64,000 nt of DNA from a candidate division WOR-3 bacterium (GCA_030606335.1 JAUWGP010000004.1:10091-74090); one strand, 5' to 3'; numbered from the stretch's first letter, positions 1,711-37,510 are shown. Notes: generated from the sequence alone by a model not told the origin. Program-made: numbers and translations.

Positions 1711-4380
1711 ATGAAGAGGATAGGCGTAATAGTGGGATGCATGGTACTGCTGACTGGAGTGATACGAGCAGACTGTGGAATAACTGGATTTGTAACAGAC
1801 GACTTGGGTTCTCCACTTCTTGGGGCTCTTGTCAGTGCACATTATACTCCCTTCGGTGGTTCTGTTGGTGAAGGTTACACGGATAGTACTGGAATATATA
1901 CAATATACCTGCTACCTGGTGTATACTATGCTTACTGTTTTAAGGATGGATATATACCCGAGTGGTGGGATGACCATGTTTCACCACAGGAGGCAGACCC
2001 AATATTTGTGGACTCGATGGGCGTGATTACATCCGATATTGATTTCGAGCTGTCCGAAGATAATCTAATATACGGCTATATAGAGGGAGCAGTCACTGAT
2101 GAAAGCTCCGGATATGTTATAAGTAGTGCCCTTATAACATTCTATATTCGGGGTTCTTACTTTCCTATCGCATCTACATTCTCAGATACTGATGGTTATT
2201 ATATTGACTCACTCCCGGTAAATGATGTCGGTTATCTGGTCAAGGCGGAAAAGGTAGGTTATGAAGAGGAATGGTATCTGGAATCGAGCACACAAGATAG
2301 TGCAACACTTGTGACTGTTGAGGAGGGAGAAACGACTTCAGATATTGACTTTACACTTATACCATCTACAGAAACAGGTTCCATAAATGGATATGTAATA
2401 TGTAATGATAGTCTCTTTTTAGATGCGGTCCTCTTCTTGTATACAGATTACTGGGGGATTCCAGTTGACACGACAGTAACAAACTATGGTTTTTATACCT
2501 TTGAGAATATCGAACCGGGAACCTATTATGTCTTCTGTGATGCCGGGAACAATGGCGAGATGTGGTGGGATAATGAGTCCAACCCTGAAGATGCTGACCC
2601 TATAGATGTATCCTGTGGAGAGACAGTCTGGGGAATAAATTTCTTCTTTGGAACACAGTCGGATGGTAGAACCGTTGCGGGATGGGTGTTTGATGAGGCA
2701 ACAGGCCTGGGTATTGGGGGTGCAGGTGTTATAATACATTCTGCCTTCCCACCAGGTGATTCCATAGGTGGGTATACAGACTTTTATGGAAGATACGTGA
2801 TAAATGATGTTCCAGCAGATAGTCTTTATGCTATTGCATGGGCAAGAGGTTATTTCTCTGAATGGTATTATGAATCAGATGGATTTGATGGTGCTACAGC
2901 CTTCATAGTGCCAGAGGGAGAGGTGGTTGATAATATTAACTTCACCCTTGCACCAGATACAATCTGGTTGCCTGGTTCAATATCAGGACAGGTAACGACC
3001 ACCGAGGGTATACCTATTTTAGATGCCTGGGTTACTGCCTATACAGGCGGCTATGTTGGAGGAATCTCGCAGGTAGATAGTGGTGGATTTTATATGATAG
3101 AGGATCTTTTACCGGATTCTTACTATGTGGTTGCCAGTGCTTTTGGTTTCTATGAAGAGTGGTATGAAGAATCACCTAATCCTCAAAGTGCAATACCTGT
3201 TGAGGTTACGGCTGGCGAGAACCACGGTGGTATTGATTTTACACTGGAGTCCATGGAAACGGGGACAGTCATAGGAAGAGTGATGGATACAGACTCTATT
3301 GGTATACCCAGAGCATACATATGGGCTGAAGGTATAGATAACTGGTCATGGGGTTATGCTGTGAGTGATGTAACTGGTGACTACATAATGGAGCTCGAAC
3401 CAGGTTTCTATTCAGTTTCTGCATATGCTGGTGGATATGAAATGGGAACATATCCTGAGCTTGTGGAGGTAATAGTAGACCAGATAACGCCAAATATTGA
3501 TATCGTGCTTGAAGAATATAATTATGAGGAAGGGACAATCTCTGGTCAGGTTTTAGAGGATACAACGTATTTAAATCCTATACAAGATGCACTGGTTATG
3601 ACATTTTCTATTGTTCCAAACAATATATTTTTTGGTTATGCATTTACTGACGAAAATGGGGAATACGTAATTGAGAATGTCCCTGCGGTGTACTGTGCAT
3701 GCTACTATGTAGTTGCCCTATCTGAAGGATATATACCCGAATTCTATGATAATGTATACACCTATGAAGAAGCGACATCTGTTGCCGCCTTTGCTGAGAA
3801 TATAGACTTCTCGCTTGGTTTGGGAGCAAGTGGTCCCAGGGGTATATCCGGAAGAGTCTTAGAGGGTAAGAGTGGGGTCTCAAATGCACTTGCCTTTGCA
3901 ATGGAGGGCTCAGAGGTAGTGGCGGCAGCGGTTACCCTTTCTGATGGGAGCTACAGGATTAGAGAGCTCCCGCCAAGTGTATACACAATAATGGTAACTG
4001 CGGTAGGTTATGAGACTACATCATTTCCATATCCTGTGGATGTTACAACAAACAATGTATCTGGAGTTGATGTTAATCTCGACCACCTTGGGGTTGAAGA
4101 GGAACACGATGTAGTATCAACCCTGATGCTTACGATGGCTCCAAATCCCACAAGGATGAAACCGACTATATCCTTCACCCTGCCAAAGGATTGTGAGGTC
4201 TCTCTCAGTTTGCATGACATATCAGGAAGAGTGGTAAAGGAAATAGCAAGTGGGTTTAGACATGCAGGTGTATATACAGGAGAGACTGTAGAAATAGAGA
4301 ATCTACCTGGAGGGATATATTTTGTAAGGCTTAAGGCAGGTAAGTCCACTCTTGTGAATAAGGTAGTTATTCTTAGATAG
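1711..4380 (+). CDS. large secreted protein with ~8-9 tandem carboxypeptidase-regulatory-like (CarboxypepD_reg) domains and a T9SS-type C-terminal sorting domain
   Basis: ATG 1711 follows GGAAAGGAGGAGG, with signal peptide MKRIGVIVGCMVLLTGV. A module GY..EWW/EWY...DIDF.L recurs through the protein. C-terminus NPTRMKPTISFTLPKDCEVSLSLHDISGRVV...GGIYFVRLKAGKSTLVNKVVILR is typical of a T9SS CTD. ORF track starts at 1675. Confidence 0.8.
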   Translation: MKRIGVIVGCMVLLTGVIRADCGITGFVTDDLGSPLLGALVSAHYTPFGGSVGEGYTDSTGIYTIYLLPGVYYAYCFKDGYIPEWWDDHVSPQEADPIFVDSMGVITSDIDFELSEDNLIYGYIEGAVTDESSGYVISSALITFYIRGSYFPIASTFSDTDGYYIDSLPVNDVGYLVKAEKVGYEEEWYLESSTQDSATLVTVEEGETTSDIDFTLIPSTETGSINGYVICNDSLFLDAVLFLYTDYWGIPVDTTVTNYGFYTFENIEPGTYYVFCDAGNNGEMWWDNESNPEDADPIDVSCGETVWGINFFFGTQSDGRTVAGWVFDEATGLGIGGAGVIIHSAFPPGDSIGGYTDFYGRYVINDVPADSLYAIAWARGYFSEWYYESDGFDGATAFIVPEGEVVDNINFTLAPDTIWLPGSISGQVTTTEGIPILDAWVTAYTGGYVGGISQVDSGGFYMIEDLLPDSYYVVASAFGFYEEWYEESPNPQSAIPVEVTAGENHGGIDFTLESMETGTVIGRVMDTDSIGIPRAYIWAEGIDNWSWGYAVSDVTGDYIMELEPGFYSVSAYAGGYEMGTYPELVEVIVDQITPNIDIVLEEYNYEEGTISGQVLEDTTYLNPIQDALVMTFSIVPNNIFFGYAFTDENGEYVIENVPAVYCACYYVVALSEGYIPEFYDNVYTYEEATSVAAFAENIDFSLGLGASGPRGISGRVLEGKSGVSNALAFAMEGSEVVAAAVTLSDGSYRIRELPPSVYTIMVTAVGYETTSFPYPVDVTTNNVSGVDVNLDHLGVEEEHDVVSTLMLTMAPNPTRMKPTISFTLPKDCEVSLSLHDISGRVVKEIASGFRHAGVYTGETVEIENLPGGIYFVRLKAGKSTLVNKVVILR

Positions 4381-4404
4381 TACTGTTGCAGTGGTAATGA
4401 TGCA

Positions 4405-4446
4405 GACGGGATGGGGGAAATATACCCCCGTCCCGTTTATTTAATT
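4405..4446 (+). terminator. rho-independent terminator after the T9SS cargo gene
   Basis: 12-bp stem GACGGGATGGGGG / CCCCCGTCCCGT with loop AAATATA, followed by TTATTTAATT. Confidence 0.6.
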
Positions 4447-4866
4447 ACCATAGACATAACAGCCACGAAGGCACCAAGACACAAAGTGATAGGTTATCGT
4501 TAATTGTTATCTGTTATTAGTTATTTTAATTCTAAAAACTGGGTGTCCTGGTGGTTAAAATAGTTTGCCACGAAGACACGAAGTATTGATAAATAGTAAA
4601 TGGTGAATTCCAAAGCGTATCAGGATACCAGGAAATCAGTAGGTAGAATATCAGATTATCAGTATATCAGAACCTGATGATCTGGTCTGCTGATGTCCTT
4701 CCCACCGATACACTGATTAGCTGATACACTGTGCTATATGAGGCTTATCAGGATATCAGCGAATCAGCAGGTAGAATATCAGATTATCAGTATATCAGAA
4801 CCTGATGCTCTGGTCTGCTGATGTCCTTCCCACTGATACACTGATTAGCTGATACACTGTGCCTTC
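4445..4866. repeat. left copy of a ~400-bp inverted repeat (contains two tandem ~125-bp ATCAG/CTGAT-rich units)
   Basis: Hand alignment to the reverse complement of 7457-7866 gives about 95 percent identity, with one ~12-nt indel near the outer end. Confidence 0.9.
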
Positions 4867-5007
4867 GTGTCTTAATGGTTAAAAGTTATTTAAATTGAAT
4901 AAAACTTGGTGCCTTAAAAACTGCAACAAGGCACAGCAAATAGGCTGAATTTTTGAATTTTACTTTTTGATATTTTATATTTGATTTTTTCTCTTATAGG
5001 GGAAGAT

Positions 5008-5577
5008 ATGGATTACTTCATACACAAAACCGCTGTAATAGATAAAGGAGCAACCATCGGGAAAGGAACGAAGATATGGCATTTTTCTCACATAATGGGT
5101 AAGGCAAGAATAGGTGATAATTGTGTTATAGGTCAGAACTGTTTCGTTGCAGATGGTGCTGTACTTGGAAACGTTGTCAAGCTTGAGAATAACGTATCAG
5201 TGTATACTTTTGTAACACTTGAGGATGGTGTATTTGTTGGACCCTCTGCGGTATTTACAAACGATATAAATCCAAGGTCTCTCTATCCTAAAGGAGGAAA
5301 ATGGATACCCACACTTGTCAAAAAAGGGTCAACCATTGGTGCAAACGCTACGATACGCTGTGGAATAACGATTGGTAGATGTGCACTTATTGGAGCAGGA
5401 GCTGTAGTGACAAAGGACATACCAGATTATGCTATTGTGGTTGGTGTTCCCGCAAAACAAATCGGTTGGGTATGTGAGTGTGGCAATAACCTTTCCTTTG
5501 AGAAGGAAAATACAATATGCAGCAAATGTGGAAGAAGATATACACTGAAACACGAGCTCTGCAGGCAAAATTCCTGA
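5008..5577 (+). CDS. left-handed beta-helix sugar N-acetyltransferase (WbpD/WlbB-like)
   Basis: Hexapeptide repeats [43 protein letters not shown]...[26 protein letters not shown] and a C-terminal Cys-rich tail. ATG 5008 follows GGGGAAG. Confidence 0.8.
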
Positions 5578-5612
5578 TTTAATCGTCTATCTTTAAATTC
5601 TATTATGACGGT

Positions 5613-6200
5613 ATGAACATATACAATTTCCCTCATTTATACGAAATTGCATTTAGAACCATCCCGCCCTTATGTATATGGAGAAGGGAATGGGAAAGAG
5701 AGGTATATAGATTCTTGGTTTCTCTTCCCAACCCTCCCGCATCTATCGTTGATTTATGTTGTGGAACAGGCTTCCTCTTTCCAATGATAAAGAGAATCTA
5801 CCCAAACTCAAAGATGGTCGGAGTTGATATTAGTGAATCTATGATAAAATTTGCTCACAAACACTACCCATTCGTAGAATTCAGGTGTGCCAATATTACC
5901 TCAATTACTAACAAGTTTGAGGTTATTATTATGGGGGGAGGTTTAACAACCATCCCGATTAATGTTGCAATCGATTCGATTCAAAGAATTTCACCAAGAC
6001 ATTTTATACTTTCAGGATATAGATTATCCCTCTGGAGTCTAACACATAGTTTCTTCGTTAAGACAGTAATGGGAATAATATGTCACATTATTTCTCCTTC
6101 TAAGGCCATAGAGACCTTCAAATCAAGAGGGATGGATGTCTCGATAAGATCGATAGATAGGATAGAGGGAAGTTATGCAATATACAATGGAATACAGTGA
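5613..6200 (+). CDS. class I SAM-dependent methyltransferase
   Basis: Motif I IVDLCCGTGFLF, followed by MVGVDISESMIKFA. Confidence 0.6.
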   Translation: MNIYNFPHLYEIAFRTIPPLCIWRREWEREVYRFLVSLPNPPASIVDLCCGTGFLFPMIKRIYPNSKMVGVDISESMIKFAHKHYPFVEFRCANITSITNKFEVIIMGGGLTTIPINVAIDSIQRISPRHFILSGYRLSLWSLTHSFFVKTVMGIICHIISPSKAIETFKSRGMDVSIRSIDRIEGSYAIYNGIQ

Positions 6201-6392
6201 CCATGTTTATCCTGTAGAGGAATACTCTACGGGGTTATTGCTTACTTATTATGGAGTGCCCCGCCAAAGCGGGGTACTCCAAAAAGTTGTCATTGCGAGC
6301 GAATGAAATGAACGTGGCAATCTCATTCGTTTCTTTCGCACGACCCCGCCTTTGGCGTGGTGCCCCGAAACCTGCGGCTACCATTATTAATC
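6201..6392. repeat. mosaic palindromic repeat cluster (families B, C, A)
   Basis: Contains cctgtagaggaatactcta, the palindrome ggagtgccccgccaaagcggggtactcc, and gtcattgcgagcgaatgaaatgaacgtggcaatctcat. Confidence 0.85.
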
Positions 6393-6394
6393 TC

Positions 6395-7354
6395 TTAATC
6401 AATCCAGAATCTTTTTGCTATTGACCTAGCTGTATTTCCATACTCATCTTCTGTTACAATCCAATAATAATACTCTCCTTCTGAGAGAGTAATGTCAACA
6501 GATGATATAGTATCCTGGGTACTCTCCTCCCATAACACCTGTGGAGGCCATCCAACAAATATCTGAGCGAGATATGATATTGGATAAGTTATTCTCAACT
6601 TATGCCATAGAAGCTGAAGCCCTACCGCCGAGACTGTATCACCATCTTGAGGATAGATTGAGATAGGAAATTCAGAGAATATCCTTGCAAGATAAAATTC
6701 ACTGGATGTATTCTCTGCCTGTTTTTCATCAACTGCAGTAGCTATAAATGGTTTACCTATGAGTAGTTCCGGATTTCCATTGGGGCACTCATTCTCAGAT
6801 ATCCTGCATTCATACACCTGAGTAAGGGGATTGAAATCCATTTTTTTCTCAATATCACTGATGACCACACTTACAGAGTCTATATCCTGTGTGCCATCAG
6901 GGTCATCTACTTGAGCTGATACAACTATCTCTACAATACTTCCCATCCAGGTAGCCATTCGTCCTGATGTTGCCATCTGTTGAACAAAGAATGGAATGCC
7001 ATTTATATGAAATAAAACCTCCTTTTCCTCGCCAGCATTTATGGCAATCTCCTCATAGCACTCCGTATAGCCGTCCTTGGTTGCAATCACATCATAGCTC
7101 CCTTTATTAATGGAAAGGGTAAATCTACCATCTCCATCTGTAAATGTAGAGACAAAATACTGGGAGTCTATAGAATAAGCGGATACAGAAGCATTTTCTA
7201 TTGGATTGCCAACAAAGTTACCAACAGTTCCCTTCAATGTTGCCTCTCCAGTATAATGTGGAGACTTCGGGTCCAATGGATTATCTCTCTCTGGACTACA
7301 TGCGATTACAACGGTTAAAACAACCAGAAAAATATATTTTAGAATATACATCAT
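6395..7354 (-). CDS. lipoprotein with CarboxypepD_reg-like domain
   Basis: Lipobox signal MMYILKYIFLVVLTVVIAC, then GTVGNFVGNPIENASVSAYS...TDGDGRFTLSINKGSYDVIATKDGY. The ORF track extends to a GTG at 7447, which is less likely to be the start. Confidence 0.7.
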   Translation of the reverse strand: MMYILKYIFLVVLTVVIACSPERDNPLDPKSPHYTGEATLKGTVGNFVGNPIENASVSAYSIDSQYFVSTFTDGDGRFTLSINKGSYDVIATKDGYTECYEEIAINAGEEKEVLFHINGIPFFVQQMATSGRMATWMGSIVEIVVSAQVDDPDGTQDIDSVSVVISDIEKKMDFNPLTQVYECRISENECPNGNPELLIGKPFIATAVDEKQAENTSSEFYLARIFSEFPISIYPQDGDTVSAVGLQLLWHKLRITYPISYLAQIFVGWPPQVLWEESTQDTISSVDITLSEGEYYYWIVTEDEYGNTARSIAKRFWID

Positions 7355-7456
7355 AGTTTTAGTCAACTTACTATTATAATACAAAATTATTAAAATTACA
7401 AGAATAAAATTCAGGAAGCATATTATTTCTGTTAAAATAGTAGCCACTAAGGCAAG

Positions 7457-7866
7457 AAGGCACAGTGTATCAGCTAATCAGTGTATCAGTGGGAAGGACA
7501 TCAGCAGACCAGATCATCAGGTTCTGATATACTGATAATCTGATATTCTACCTGCTGATTCGCTGATATCCTGATACGCCTCATATAGCACAGTGTATCA
7601 GCTAATCAGTGTATCGGTGGGAAGGACATCAGCAGACCAGAGCATCAGGTTCTGATATACTGATAATCTGATATTCTACCTGCTGATTTCCTGGTATCCT
7701 GATACGCCTTGGAATTCGTCATTTACCGTTTGTCGATACTCAGTGTCTTCGTGGCAAACTCTTTTAACCACCAGGACACTAAGTTTTTAAAATTAAAATA
7801 ACTAATAACAGATAACAATTAACGATAACCTATCACTTTGTGTCTTGGTGGCAGTTATGTTGGTAA
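7457..7866. repeat. right copy of the ~400-bp inverted repeat
   Basis: Reverse complement aligns to 4445-4866. It ends directly at the stop codon of the UbiA-family gene. Confidence 0.9.
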
Positions 7867-8697
7867 CTAAACAGCTGCAAGTATCAGGGAGCATAATGCT
7901 CCCAGCATACATGTCTTTAATATTCTGCTTGTAAGGGTAAATGAAATCCTATCCCTTTTGATTAGAAATAAAAGGACAACCAATGGGATGTCGACAAGTA
8001 TAACAACCGAAATAAGATAAGGCAGTCCATATATACCTGCCAAATATGGAAATAGTGTATATAATATGAGAATAACGGTTAGTACATTCACAAGTCTCCG
8101 TGCCCTTTTAATTCCATATACAATGGGATATGTTTGTGCATAACCCCTGTCTCCGTCAATATCCTCTATATCCTTTATCAGTTCTCTTAAAAGGTGAAAT
8201 AGAAAGGCGAAGAAGAAGGGTATTATAGTTGGTGTTATAAACTCAGCAGCTATTCCTCCATATATGAATGGAAGACCGCCAAGAAATGCAACTGCAATAT
8301 TTCCTCGAAACCCTCTCCTTTTAAGAGAGAACGAGTAGAGTAAGAGAAGAACTGTTACGAGTATCGCCATCTCAATTAACCAGAAAGATACAAGACCTGC
8401 AATGGATACTCCAGCTATAAATAGAGCGATGGAGATGATTCCCGCAGCTTTTCCTGATAGCCTTCCAGATGGTATGGGTCTTTCTGGTTTGTTTATCCTG
8501 TCAATATCCTTATCAACCATATCATTTATAGAATTACCACCACCTGTTATCAGAAAACATGAGAGGGCTGCAAGCCAGACAGACTGTGTTAGACCGCATT
8601 TTGTCAGTACGGCTCCGATTATTACGGACACAGCAGCTATTATGCCATTTATAGGTCTTACAACTTCCAACCCCGCCTTTATTTTATCTCCAAACAT
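7867..8697 (-). CDS. UbiA-family prenyltransferase, DGGGP-synthase-like (geranylgeranylglycerol-phosphate geranylgeranyltransferase-like)
   Basis: Polytopic membrane protein. First Asp-rich motif NSINDMVDKDIDRINKPERPIPSG and second motif LIKDIEDIDGDR. The specific subfamily assignment is from memory of archaeal DGGGPS motifs. Confidence 0.75.
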   Translation of the reverse strand: MFGDKIKAGLEVVRPINGIIAAVSVIIGAVLTKCGLTQSVWLAALSCFLITGGGNSINDMVDKDIDRINKPERPIPSGRLSGKAAGIISIALFIAGVSIAGLVSFWLIEMAILVTVLLLLYSFSLKRRGFRGNIAVAFLGGLPFIYGGIAAEFITPTIIPFFFAFLFHLLRELIKDIEDIDGDRGYAQTYPIVYGIKRARRLVNVLTVILILYTLFPYLAGIYGLPYLISVVILVDIPLVVLLFLIKRDRISFTLTSRILKTCMLGALCSLILAAV

Positions 8698-23412: not shown

Positions 23413-23457
23413 GGTTAGCGTAGAGCGTATTGAGTAGGGCGATTGACGAGTACCAGA

Positions 23458-23543
23458 GTATATCAGGATATTAGCAGATCAGTAGGCAGAATATCAGATT
23501 ATCAGAGTATCAGGAGGTAGGAGTCCGTCGTTTGACGGACGAT
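23458..23543. repeat. ATCAG-family fragment plus gtccgtc hairpin
   Basis: tatcaggatattagcagatcagtaggcagaatatcagattatcag and gagtccgtcgtttgacggac. Confidence 0.7.
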
Positions 23544-23612: not shown

Positions 23613-24131
23613 ATGAAGAAGAAGGCGCTTATTTTACTGCTCTGTCTTTTGCCTATTTTAGGTTGTGAGCAGATGGAAGATGACCCTGATAACGCCATTG
23701 TAACTGGAGTTGTGTATAGACATGTTGTCTTTACTGATTCGATATTTCAGTGCGAGGATTCAATATGGGTTTATACAGATTGGTATTATACTGACCCAGC
23801 AGAGAGTGTTCAGGTATGGGTCGAAAGTGATGAGATGTCAGGGGTACCTTACATAGGACCTGATATTATGGGTTATACCGACTCAGAAGGAATATACAGA
23901 ATACCGATATATCTTGGACATACATATGGCACTTTTTCTGGGGATGTCTATAGTGAACTTTTAGAAGATTTCACAGGATATACCTTTAAGTATTATGCTG
24001 ACGTAAGGGTGTTCTGTGTATACAAGGGTGGATGGTTTTATGATTTTGGGGGAGGTCTTACTCTAAAGGCAGGCGAGGAATTTATTTTATTCCCTGTCTG
24101 TTTAGAGTGGTACGCATCCCAGGGAGATTAA
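23613..24131 (+). CDS. hypothetical lipoprotein inserted between pilMN and pilO
   Basis: Lipobox LLCLLPILGC after AAAGGAGGTGG. Contains a CarboxypepD_reg-like stretch VTGVVY...GYTDSEGIYRIPIYLG. Confidence 0.6.
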   Translation: MKKKALILLLCLLPILGCEQMEDDPDNAIVTGVVYRHVVFTDSIFQCEDSIWVYTDWYYTDPAESVQVWVESDEMSGVPYIGPDIMGYTDSEGIYRIPIYLGHTYGTFSGDVYSELLEDFTGYTFKYYADVRVFCVYKGGWFYDFGGGLTLKAGEEFILFPVCLEWYASQGD

Positions 24132-34680: not shown

Positions 34681-35372
34681 TTTTGGAGTACCCCGCCAAG
34701 GCGGGGCACTCCTTAGTGTTAAAAATGAGATTGCCGCGCTCCTGTTGTTCGCTCGCAATGACAGATAACGACTAAAGATGGTAGCCTGCGAATAAAAGAA
34801 AACAGGAAATTGTCATTGCGAGTAGTCCGTCGGTTGACGGACGACGAAGCAATCTCATCTCTCAGCATTCTATGGAGTGTATTATGGAGTGCATTAACCG
34901 TGTTAATGCACCACTGTGACCCCATATAGAGTATTCCTCTACAGGGTAAACACGGTCACAGCACTCCAAAAGGGCATTGCTGTTACCCTATAGAGTAATC
35001 CTATACAGGGTAAATACGGTCATTGAAATTTTTGGAGTACATCGACCATGTCGATGTAAGCAATAACAAGGAAATGAATGAGATTGCCGCGCTCCCATTG
35101 GTCGCTCGCAATGACAGGTAACGACTAAAAATGGTAGCCGCAGGCTTTAGCCTGCGAATAACAGAAAACAGGTAATTGTCATTGCGAGGAGTCCGTCGGT
35201 TGACGGACGATGAAGCAATCTCATCTCTCAGCATTCTATGGAGTGACAGTCTTTAGACTGTTAAAAAGGCGTTAAGGATGAGATTGCCGCGCTCCCGTTG
35301 GTCGCTCGCAATGACAGCTAAAGGAATAAGATTGCGACGTCCCGATTATCATCGGGACTCACAATGACAGAC
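34681..35372. repeat. ~700-bp mosaic palindromic repeat cluster (families A-E)
   Basis: ggagtaccccgccaaggcggggcactcc, several gagattgccgcgctc...cgctcgcaatgaca units, gtcattgcgag...gaagcaatctcatctctcagcattctatggagtg, ctgtgaccccat...ggtcacag, gtagccgcaggctttagcctgcg, and gacagtctttagactgt. Confidence 0.9.
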
Positions 35373-35415: not shown

Positions 35416-37122
35416 ATGAATGGATGTTTTCTTTTAATATTACTCTTTCTTCCAATTTTTTCTGTTTACCCCTTAGAATGGGTCCAGACAGACTGGTCTG
35501 GGGGAGGTGGTGAATTCTATTGGGGTGATTCCACAAAATACTACAGCAGCACACTTAATGGGTGGAGAAATCCAGGAATTCTTACCCTTGATACACCTTC
35601 TGATAAATGGGAGGTTATGGGTGACCCGGATGGGGCTAAAAATATCTGGGTACTGCTTGAATTTGTGGGGAATATATATGCGGGTGTTGACAACTATCCG
35701 ACTACAGGAACAGGTAGAGTGCTATTTTCAAACGACAATGGACATAACTGGACAGCAGGTGGAGCTCTTGGTTCTTCTAATTTTGTACACGCTCTACTTG
35801 AATACAATGACGTAATATATGCAGGTACAGATGGGAATGTATATAAATCCTCTGATGCTGGAACAACGTGGACACAAACTGGGAGTCTCTCGGGTGTAAC
35901 AAGGGTTGATGCTCTTGCCTTAAGGAATGATACCATCTTTGCAGGAACAGGGACAGGTGGTGATGTATTCAAATCAGGTAATTGCATGAATTGGACCAAC
36001 ACAGGAGAGCTCACAGATGCAACAATAATATGGGATTTACTTGTGGGTTTTGATGGAACAATGTATGCTGCTGGAACAAAGAATAATACATCATCCTGTA
36101 TATTCAGGTCCACTGATGGCGGTGGAACATGGGTGGATCTTGGCTTCTCCCATGATGTGGTCTGTTATGCACTTGCTCAGGCAGCAGATTCTACCATATA
36201 TGCTGGGATAGGAGTAGATAGTGGATATGTATATAAATCTACAGATGGAGGAGACACCTGGATTGTGACATCTGATCTGGGAAGTGGACTTTCAAAGGCG
36301 AATATTGTTTATAGTATAATTATAGCAGATGATGGTAGTATATATGCAGGCACTCTTGCAGGTACAGGAGCAGGGAGGGTATTTAAATCTAAAGATGGAG
36401 GAAATAGTTGGTCTGGTATATCTCTTGGTAATGCCCATATTTATTCACTGCTTCAATCAGATGAGGGTTTTATCTACGCAGGACAGGATAGAATAATGAC
36501 AAATCCAATTTCAAGGACCGCATATGATTCAACAGGTTATCTTAACTCATCAGTGTACGATACAGAGATTGATACGGTGAAATATGGGATAATTCACTGG
36601 GATGCAGACCTACATGGGTGTAACATTACTGTGGGTGTACAGGCAGATACGAGCAATTGGTTTTGGCCAGAACCTGAGACAATTGAGGTTATGAATAACA
36701 CCCAGCTGCCAGAGGCGTTAAACGATAAACGATATGTGCGGTATATATTTGAGGTATACAGTTCCTCTGCTGATTCCTCACCTGTAATTGATGAGATTAG
36801 TATAGGTTATTCACCAGGAGGTTCAGGCATAGGAGTGGATGAGTTTAGTGATATATACCTGTATACACCAGTTCCCAATCCATTTACCCATTCAACGACC
36901 ATCAGGTATATCAATCCCAGAAGTGAACCGCTTTCTATAGATGTTTACGATATCTGCGGAAGGCTCATACGAAATCTTATTAATGGTTTTGATAGAGAAG
37001 GATGTATTAAGTGGAAGGGACAGGATAAATTGGGACGGAGATTGCCTCCAGGGGTTTATTTCGTGAGATTAGATATAGAAGAGAGAAGTATTGGTAAAAA
37101 GGTGATTTTTCTTGGGCAATGA
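35416..37122 (+). CDS. secreted BNR/Asp-box (sialidase/Ycf48-like) beta-propeller protein with T9SS-type C-terminal domain
   Basis: Asp-box repeats SNDNGHNWT, SSDAGTTWT, STDGGGTWV, STDGGDTWI, SKDGGNSWS. C-terminus NPFTHSTTIRY...IDVYDICGRLI...GVYFVRLDIEERSIGKKVIFL. Confidence 0.8.
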   Translation: MNGCFLLILLFLPIFSVYPLEWVQTDWSGGGGEFYWGDSTKYYSSTLNGWRNPGILTLDTPSDKWEVMGDPDGAKNIWVLLEFVGNIYAGVDNYPTTGTGRVLFSNDNGHNWTAGGALGSSNFVHALLEYNDVIYAGTDGNVYKSSDAGTTWTQTGSLSGVTRVDALALRNDTIFAGTGTGGDVFKSGNCMNWTNTGELTDATIIWDLLVGFDGTMYAAGTKNNTSSCIFRSTDGGGTWVDLGFSHDVVCYALAQAADSTIYAGIGVDSGYVYKSTDGGDTWIVTSDLGSGLSKANIVYSIIIADDGSIYAGTLAGTGAGRVFKSKDGGNSWSGISLGNAHIYSLLQSDEGFIYAGQDRIMTNPISRTAYDSTGYLNSSVYDTEIDTVKYGIIHWDADLHGCNITVGVQADTSNWFWPEPETIEVMNNTQLPEALNDKRYVRYIFEVYSSSADSSPVIDEISIGYSPGGSGIGVDEFSDIYLYTPVPNPFTHSTTIRYINPRSEPLSIDVYDICGRLIRNLINGFDREGCIKWKGQDKLGRRLPPGVYFVRLDIEERSIGKKVIFLGQ

Positions 37123-37134
37123 TAATTATTGGAT

Positions 37135-37510
37135 CTGTCATTGCGAGCGACCAATGGGAGCGCGGCAATCTCATTCATTTCCTTTGCAGGCTAAAGCCTT
37201 CAGCTACAATTTTTAACACTATGGAGTATCCCGCCTTGGAGGGGTACTCCAAAAATTTCAATGACCGTGTTTACCCTGTATAGGATTACTCTATCAGGTC
37301 ACAGTGGTGCCCTTTTGGAGTGCTGTGACCGTGTTTACCCTGTAGAGGAATACTCTACTATGGGGTCACAGTGGTGCATTAACACGGTTAATGCACTCCA
37401 TAATACACTCCATATAGCACTCCATAGAATGCTTAGAGATGAGATTGCTTCGTCGCTTCACTCCTCGCAAAGACAAATAAGGTAGTGTCAGTCTAAAGAC
37501 TGTCATTATA
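37135..37510. repeat. mosaic palindromic repeat cluster
   Basis: Same modules as 34681-35372, mostly in the opposite orientation (gtcattgcgagcgaccaatgggagcgcggcaatctcat; tgcactccataatacactccatatagcactccatagaatgc). Confidence 0.9.

Follow-up and report, generated by a model that had tools for sequence, protein, structure and literature searches.

What has placed three genes between two long inverted repeats in the genome of an uncultured cold-seep bacterium? The locus lies in a 64,000-nt stretch (64 kb) from candidate division WOR-3 (GCA_030606335.1 JAUWGP010000004.1:10091-74090; hereafter "the window", meaning this whole stretch), where ~400-bp, ~95% identical inverted repeats bracket genes for an acetyltransferase, a methyltransferase and a lipoprotein. 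A first-pass annotation of this DNA had offered two answers: a transposase-less composite cassette inserted between two convergent genes, possibly a mobile module for surface-glycan modification, or a segment able to flip by homologous recombination. Comparison with relatives supports the flip, as the three genes stand in the opposite orientation in four comparable relatives. They are long-standing residents of the locus, and we put at roughly 60% the probability that, in this strain, they were flipped between two inverted copies of one repeat-laden intergenic spacer (spacer S). The apparent mobile glycan cassette would then be a small strain-level inversion, and we class the locus as a repeat-mediated micro-inversion, an already known kind of event, in a genome with spacers rapidly remodelled by hairpin modules.

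The evidence that carries this reading is the gene order of relatives, for which we compared L010/L091 (JAGMCL010000064.1), L004 (JAGMEM010000807.1), L092 (CAZRTU010000024.1) and, for the UbiA side, L011. In L010/L091, a WOR-3 metagenome-assembled genome (MAG) with a 97% identical UbiA and an interior 98% identical in the DNA alignment, a kinase gene and an open reading frame (ORF) of 205 amino acids are followed by a gene for a cargo protein of the type IX secretion system (T9SS) and the lipoprotein gene, both on the forward strand; then come the methyltransferase, acetyltransferase, GxxExxY and UbiA genes, all on the reverse strand, and finally tsaB and NfeD (both forward) and a response regulator. 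The order and orientation in L092 are those of L010 (cargo and lipoprotein forward; methyltransferase, acetyltransferase and UbiA reversed), with the lipoprotein 59% and the acetyltransferase 84% identical to those of the window. In L004 the lipoprotein (100% identical) is encoded 373 nt after the cargo gene and on the same strand, and in L011, a Stahlbacteria MAG with a 70% identical UbiA, the UbiA, GxxExxY, acetyltransferase (78%) and methyltransferase (61%) genes follow one another on one strand, with unrelated housekeeping genes after the methyltransferase. The window's flanks are colinear with L010, from the kinase, the 205-amino-acid ORF and the cargo gene on one side to UbiA, tsaB, NfeD and the response regulator on the other. 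The window differs, as assembled, in the 2.56-kb interior alone, which is reversed relative to all four relatives, and the breakpoints fall within two repeat-filled spacers.

Two same-strand pairings recur in this comparison: the acetyltransferase and methyltransferase genes follow UbiA in L011, L092 and L010, and the lipoprotein gene follows the cargo gene in L092, L010 and L004. The former pair is thus an old partner of UbiA and the lipoprotein an old partner of the cargo gene, which makes the three genes two halves of two neighbouring conserved gene groups rather than one unit. Because these pairings are kept in the relatives, the "cassette" is neither a unit nor an insertion at this locus.

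This bears directly on the idea of a composite-transposon-like cassette that carried a glycan-modification module into the gap between the convergent genes, which the geometry, and the geometry alone, would favour. Against it, the genes are conserved at the locus in L092, L010, L004 and (on the UbiA side) L011, an empty cargo-UbiA site was seen in none of these four, and the genes belong to two different conserved neighbour groups. The GC content of the interior (0.36-0.42) equals that of the flanks, no recombinase or transposase was found among the 36 window ORFs scanned, and the outer ends (4441 and 7870) are without direct or inverted duplication, save a TTTA native to both flanks. We find such an insertion scarcely credible. 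The first-pass annotation had itself looked to relatives that carry the same genes in the same orientation without the repeats; the repeats are indeed missing from relatives such as L092, which has the genes at the locus, and mobility, including that of a glycan module, is refuted by this synteny, whereas the orientation is opposite, which supports the flip. For genome scanning at large, long inverted repeats in repeat-rich MAGs need a synteny check before mobility is called.

The features of the locus, left to right, are as follows (arms and modules from repeat search, alignment, folding and sequence comparison; the assignments of the arms to spacer S are discussed below).

1711-4380, plus strand: T9SS cargo protein with five CarboxypepD_reg repeats and a Por_Secre_tail sorting domain (Pfam); left flank.
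4404-4438, plus strand: intrinsic terminator hairpin of the cargo gene, a hairpin also present in L010, L004 and L092.
4441-4881, plus strand: left arm, the second (paralogous) copy of spacer S.
Within the left arm: hairpin module H1 at ~4461-4556; opening stem of module H2, GCCACGAAGACACGAAG, at 4567-4583; two 128-nt units at ~4615-4862; closing stem of H2, CTTCGTGTCTTAATGG, at 4863-4878.
4882-4925, plus strand: 3' half of an AT-loop hairpin module (AAAGTTATTTAAATTGAATAAAACTTGGTGCC...), at the inner junction of the left arm.
4953-4981, plus strand: promoter-like site of the acetyltransferase gene, TTGAAT-17-TATATT, within the flipped segment.
5008-5577, plus strand: hexapeptide-repeat acyltransferase (the acetyltransferase of the text); its C-terminal tail has the pattern CxxC...CxxC, and identity to its counterparts is 78% in L011 and 84% in L092.
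5613-6200, plus strand: class I S-adenosylmethionine-dependent methyltransferase, adjoining the acyltransferase, 61% identical to the L011 protein.
6201-6394, no strand: convergent spacer of high-copy "cattgcgag"-type modules, at ~30x single-copy depth.
6395-7354, minus strand: CarboxypepD_reg lipoprotein; in relatives its gene comes next after the cargo gene, in the same direction.
7373-7401, minus strand (7401 to 7373): promoter-like site of the lipoprotein gene, TTGTAA-17-TATAAT, within the flipped segment, its sequence conserved in L010 and L004.
7441-7870, minus strand: right arm, orthologue of the relatives' cargo-to-lipoprotein spacer S, abutting the UbiA stop and keeping the module order of the left arm.
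7867-8697, minus strand: UbiA-family prenyltransferase, closest NCBIfam models those of geranylgeranylglycerol-phosphate geranylgeranyltransferase; right flank.

The gene content is as first annotated. A repeat search, both local and window-wide, placed the arms at 4472-4881 and 7441-7850 (410 nt ungapped, 95% complementary, separated by 2559 nt); they form the longest repeat in the window, every other pair having less than one third of that length. Gapped alignment extends the match to 4441-4881 against 7870-7441 (441 columns, 407 of them identical, with a maximal identical run of 64 nt), and this extended match spans from the cargo gene terminator, the left arm beginning directly after its T-run, to the UbiA stop codon (7867-7869), exactly where the unit had first been placed. 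The hand count of about 18 mismatches and one ~12-nt indel gives way to 23 mismatches and two gaps of 3 and 8 nt, both close to the outer end; the inner ~250 nt (4615-4862) are almost identical, as claimed, with only four differing positions (4640, 4680, 4745 and 4808).

Each arm is built of hairpin modules with stems made of 8-nt-phased CACNAAG words, and none of its ORFs matches a transposase. From outside to inside it consists of a short stretch of degenerate words (TTACCATAGACATAAC), then H1, in which CACNAAG-word stems (GCCACGAAGGCACCAAGACACAAAG ... CTGGGTGTCCTGGTGG) close a 50-nt loop, and then the H2 stem pair (GCCACGAAGACACGAAG ... CTTCGTGTCTTAATGG), which encloses both ATCAG units. 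Tandem Repeats Finder resolves the latter as a 128-nt unit in 1.9-2.0 copies per arm with 94-95% matches (4618-4862 and 7460-7709), its left half made of ATCAG words with an 8-nt period and its right half of CTGAT words. The first-pass annotation had described two tandem ~125-bp units rich in ATCAG and CTGAT, each an imperfect palindrome; single units do form hairpins, yet not clearly above shuffled sequence (z of -1.5 to -1.8). The entire arm folds much better than its shuffles (z of -5.0). The word CCACNAAGNCAC occurs four times in the window against 0.08 expected, always within the arms, and Rfam gave no credible match.

Could the duplication be an artefact of assembly, a check that the first-pass annotation had advised? 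Among public run contigs, which are built from 31-base words with minor variants removed, we used those of X1 (SRR14876847) and X12, from different studies. X1 contigs cover 3800-4501, 4472-4644 and 4837-6233 with 0 differences to the window, and X1 and X12 contigs reach from UbiA to 7821. In both runs the cargo contig and the UbiA contig converge on a shared 30-mer (4472-4501, the reverse complement of 7821-7850), and in X1 the ends of the ATCAG unit adjoin the acetyltransferase side (L002) and the lipoprotein side (L005). The junctions are therefore confirmed independently: since both flanks enter the same outer module in independent contigs, the inverted duplication is real in two samples and is not an assembly chimera.

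Where the two copies come from can be read from the relatives, in which S is a single-copy spacer between the T9SS cargo gene and the lipoprotein gene. The right arm and the region upstream of the lipoprotein gene align with the cargo-to-lipoprotein spacers of L010 and L004 (alignment A1), and the L010 allele is found in the right arm at each of the four inner positions that are diagnostic. This alignment identifies the right arm as the orthologue of the relatives' S; the left arm is a second, inverted copy, with an outer homology that starts at the TTTA native to both the terminator tail and the UbiA stop. The second copy stands, in the window strain, where L010 has its GxxExxY-bearing spacer. 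The AT-loop half module at the inner junction (4882-4925) resembles modules of that UbiA-acetyltransferase spacer of L010.

The module content of S varies among strains with genes 98-100% identical, and the locus offers a worked example of four structural alleles of one spacer within a species:

L004: two AT-loop modules, the ATCAG pair missing.
L010: three AT-loop modules and the ATCAG pair once, with a 30-nt insert between its units.
Run X3: the ATCAG pair without H1.
Window: H1 and the ATCAG pair, twice.

Between the two spacers of L010 there are 20 inverted module pairs, of up to 85 nt at 92% identity, and substrates for recombination therefore predate the long arms. Stacked hairpin modules can, in this way, supply the substrate for rearranging neighbouring genes.

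The ATCAG units are a dispersed multi-copy family. In X1 and X5 they reach 10-40x single-copy depth, a sum over all organisms of the metagenome and not a per-genome copy count; in X1 the ATCAG core stands at 500-800, read in the same way, against ~16 for single-copy genes nearby. The core also forms the end of contigs that have different unique flanks. The H1 loop has only ~2 copies. A scan of viral contigs for the ATCAG core gave no match. The ATCAG-bearing module of L010 has a copy of GCCTTCGTGTCTTAGTGGCTA on either side; as this sequence is itself a module stem, a duplication is indistinguishable here from stacking. Module stem words serve as inverted termini. An isolated half unit (the ATCAG-word half only) occurs at 23453-23513 in the spacer upstream of the ORF 23613-24131, and is followed by a different, GC-rich hairpin.

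From these observations we infer a history in two steps, starting from the ancestral order cargo and lipoprotein on one strand, then methyltransferase, acetyltransferase and UbiA on the other. First, similar stems that both spacers already carried would have seeded either gene conversion or an inverted duplication of S, and the second copy would have displaced the spacer with the GxxExxY gene next to the UbiA stop codon. Homologous recombination of the RecA type between these copies would then have inverted the 2.56-kb interior, and the arms have the length and similarity that such recombination needs (410 nt, 95%, identical runs of up to 64 nt). The flip would be a passive structural polymorphism with no expression switch built in, because both arm-facing genes carry promoter-like sites inside the segment.

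This history resembles inversions between dispersed repeats such as insertion sequences (IS), rrn operons, repetitive extragenic palindromic (REP) sequences and bacterial interspersed mosaic elements (BIME), or miniature inverted-repeat transposable elements (MITE). Shared with these are similar inverted copies, an orientation that differs between strains, breakpoints in the repeats, intact genes and the lack of involvement of a dedicated recombinase. The difference is that the repeat here is a whole intergenic spacer of stacked hairpin modules instead of an IS or rRNA operon, that the segment is very small (2.56 kb), and that one arm is a locus-specific duplicate present in this strain only. 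The modules themselves recall REP/BIME mosaics and bacterial MITEs, being short hairpins stacked in spacers in variable order, multi-copy and strain-variable; here, however, the stems are arrays of 8-nt-phased words (CACNAAG; ATCAG), and such stems flank GxxExxY/PDDEXK_3 genes in sister genomes.

Several points weigh against a flip between two S copies. The outer end of the S copy lies at the shared TTTA and its inner end inside the loop of another module, and neither resembles a clean element boundary. The arms are 92-95% identical and hence more diverged than genes between strains (98%), and the event is therefore not very recent; the data examined contain no sign of ongoing flipping. The public contigs confirm the four junctions but do not link the outer to the inner parts of an arm, and the window's assembly is the sole source of the flipped orientation. 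The right-arm stretch 7710-7820 was not found at 97% identity or above in X1, X5, X7, X8, X9, X11 or X12, which we read as dropping of minor variants rather than absence, or which may reflect another sample of origin.

The four junctions are, moreover, equally compatible with an interior still in its ancestral orientation and an additional S ahead of the acetyltransferase gene. There may thus be no inversion in the living strain: with a second S between UbiA and the acetyltransferase gene, the assembler could have threaded the interior wrongly through the inner 250 nt. All four X1 junction contigs are compatible with either orientation, every independent assembly that crosses a spacer (L004, L010 and L092) has the ancestral one, multi-copy units at the depths given above tangle assembly graphs, and other assemblies of these samples stop at the arms (contigs of ~1-3 kb). 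Mis-threading is opposed by the 23 sites and 11 gap positions at which the arms differ, which 150-nt reads or assembly words of at least 79 are able to phase, and by the window contig itself, which passes many other repeat-filled spacers without visible problems. Because identical runs between the arms never exceed 64 nt, the assembled orientation is plausible, and we consider a mis-oriented interior unlikely while giving it real weight; in repeat-rich MAGs, the assembled orientation of genes between long inverted repeats calls for read-level proof.

The pattern of arm matches to L010 (from outer to inner L, L, L, R, L, R, R, R, R, R, L, L, R, R, for left and right arm) was considered as a guide to the crossover point and was rejected, because independent mutations after the duplication give such a mosaic too.

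The orientation and the duplication could also have arisen in one step, S or a sub-element of it acting as a non-autonomous transposable element that underwent intramolecular replicative transposition in trans into the UbiA-proximal spacer. After such transposition of IS26/Tn4401 the old copy remains, the interior lies inverted and a further copy, also inverted, stands at the target (He et al., 2015, PMC4471558), and the topology at our locus is exactly this (flank, element, inverted interior, inverted element, flank). The original inner end still adjoins the lipoprotein gene, modules of this type are associated with GxxExxY elements, and their presence or absence varies between strains. What sets the locus apart from IS26/Tn4401 is that the transposase, clean ends and inverted target-site duplication were not found: the new junctions (after 4881 versus after 7870) show no such duplication, the duplicated segment does not end in clean terminal inverted repeats, and the window has neither a transposase nor a PDDEXK_3 gene. 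An extra deletion of ~75 nt relative to an L010-like ancestor would also be needed. We judge this one-step origin improbable.

The PDDEXK_3 family enters here through the GxxExxY genes of the relatives (L010 4042-4434; L011 1668-2048), which are flanked by CAC(N)AAG word arrays like the arm stems. It is possible, if quite improbable and put forward as speculation, that a structure-directed, replicative process moved the whole of S, perhaps with a GxxExxY PD-(D/E)XK nuclease, from a gene elsewhere in the genome, acting in trans. If true, a single event would copy a whole spacer in inverted form into a nearby hairpin-bearing spacer and flip the genes between, and uncultured bacteria rich in repeats would owe micro-inversions to the activity of such elements. 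A literature search on "GxxExxY" returned no published description of elements with word-array stems of this kind, the mentions in the papers listed concerning another subject. The GxxExxY gene occupies the same UbiA-acetyltransferase spacer in L010 and L011, and is not there in L092; the L010 and L011 GxxExxY proteins are 42% identical, against 61-78% for the flanking orthologues, which suggests either repeated insertion into the same spacer or fast evolution.

Is the flip, finally, a switch? In programmed phase variation a site-specific recombinase would invert the segment and so alter the expression of surface-protein or lipid-modification genes. As in the known invertase switches (Hin/Gin, fim, Bacteroides capsule promoters, shufflons), an invertible segment flanked by inverted repeats lies near surface-protein genes, and different strains show opposite orientations. 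However, the arms (410-441 nt) are 15-40 times longer than the 10-30-nt sites of invertases, no recombinase was found among the window ORFs, and none of the serine/tyrosine type in the L091 gene table. Gene fragments are not shuffled, and promoter-in/promoter-out logic is missing, since each promoter-like site (4953-4981 and 7401-7373) moves together with its gene; the cargo gene, moreover, ends in a terminator of its own. The repeat pair is altogether missing from L092 and L004. A programmed switch is accordingly very improbable, and the reading as a passive flip between S copies is kept.

In L092 the two spacers are short (163 and 264 nt) and clean, that is, without hairpin modules and without the inverted repeat. 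The exact cargo protein of the window is present on X1 contig L095, and cargo orthologues occur in L091 and L092. Exact matches to the UbiA, cargo and acetyltransferase proteins came solely from short contigs, which stop within the repeats. An AT-rich region upstream of the acetyltransferase gene has a similar counterpart in L011. The convergent spacer at 6201-6394 stands at ~30x depth in four runs, and its left part is wholly unlike L010, although the genes on either side are 98% identical. In a species with a 65% identical lipoprotein (L093, 351-2756; L094), rpoN (sigma-54) directly follows the lipoprotein gene and the methyltransferase gene is not there, and the adjacency of lipoprotein and methyltransferase is therefore not universal. 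In run X3 depth is 15-23 over the cargo, acetyltransferase, methyltransferase and lipoprotein genes, but nothing of at least 90% identity covers UbiA (window 7825-8600); the right flank of the X3 strain may be diverged or rearranged. A scan of metagenome contigs for the methyltransferase gave one distant match.

As to what the genes do, a conserved cluster of a UbiA protein like digeranylgeranylglyceryl phosphate (DGGGP) synthase, the acyltransferase and the methyltransferase is found in the window (5008-8697), L011 (570-3382) and L092 (5930-8223). The C-terminal tail of the acyltransferase is zinc-ribbon-like, and the protein matches the NCBIfam model of heptaprenylglyceryl phosphate O-acetyltransferase weakly (47 bits, cut-off 300). 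Going by these protein families, the substrate of the cluster may be a prenyl-glycerol lipid and not a surface sugar; the acetyltransferase-methyltransferase pair, as a conserved partner of a DGGGP-synthase-like prenyltransferase, points to prenyl-lipid chemistry and away from surface glycans.

The window holds a second inverted pair, at 34927-35040 and 37244-37357 (114 nt, 94%). It brackets a 2.2-kb segment with one gene, for a T9SS cargo protein with a Por_Secre_tail domain (35416-37122), and this segment may be flip-prone as well.

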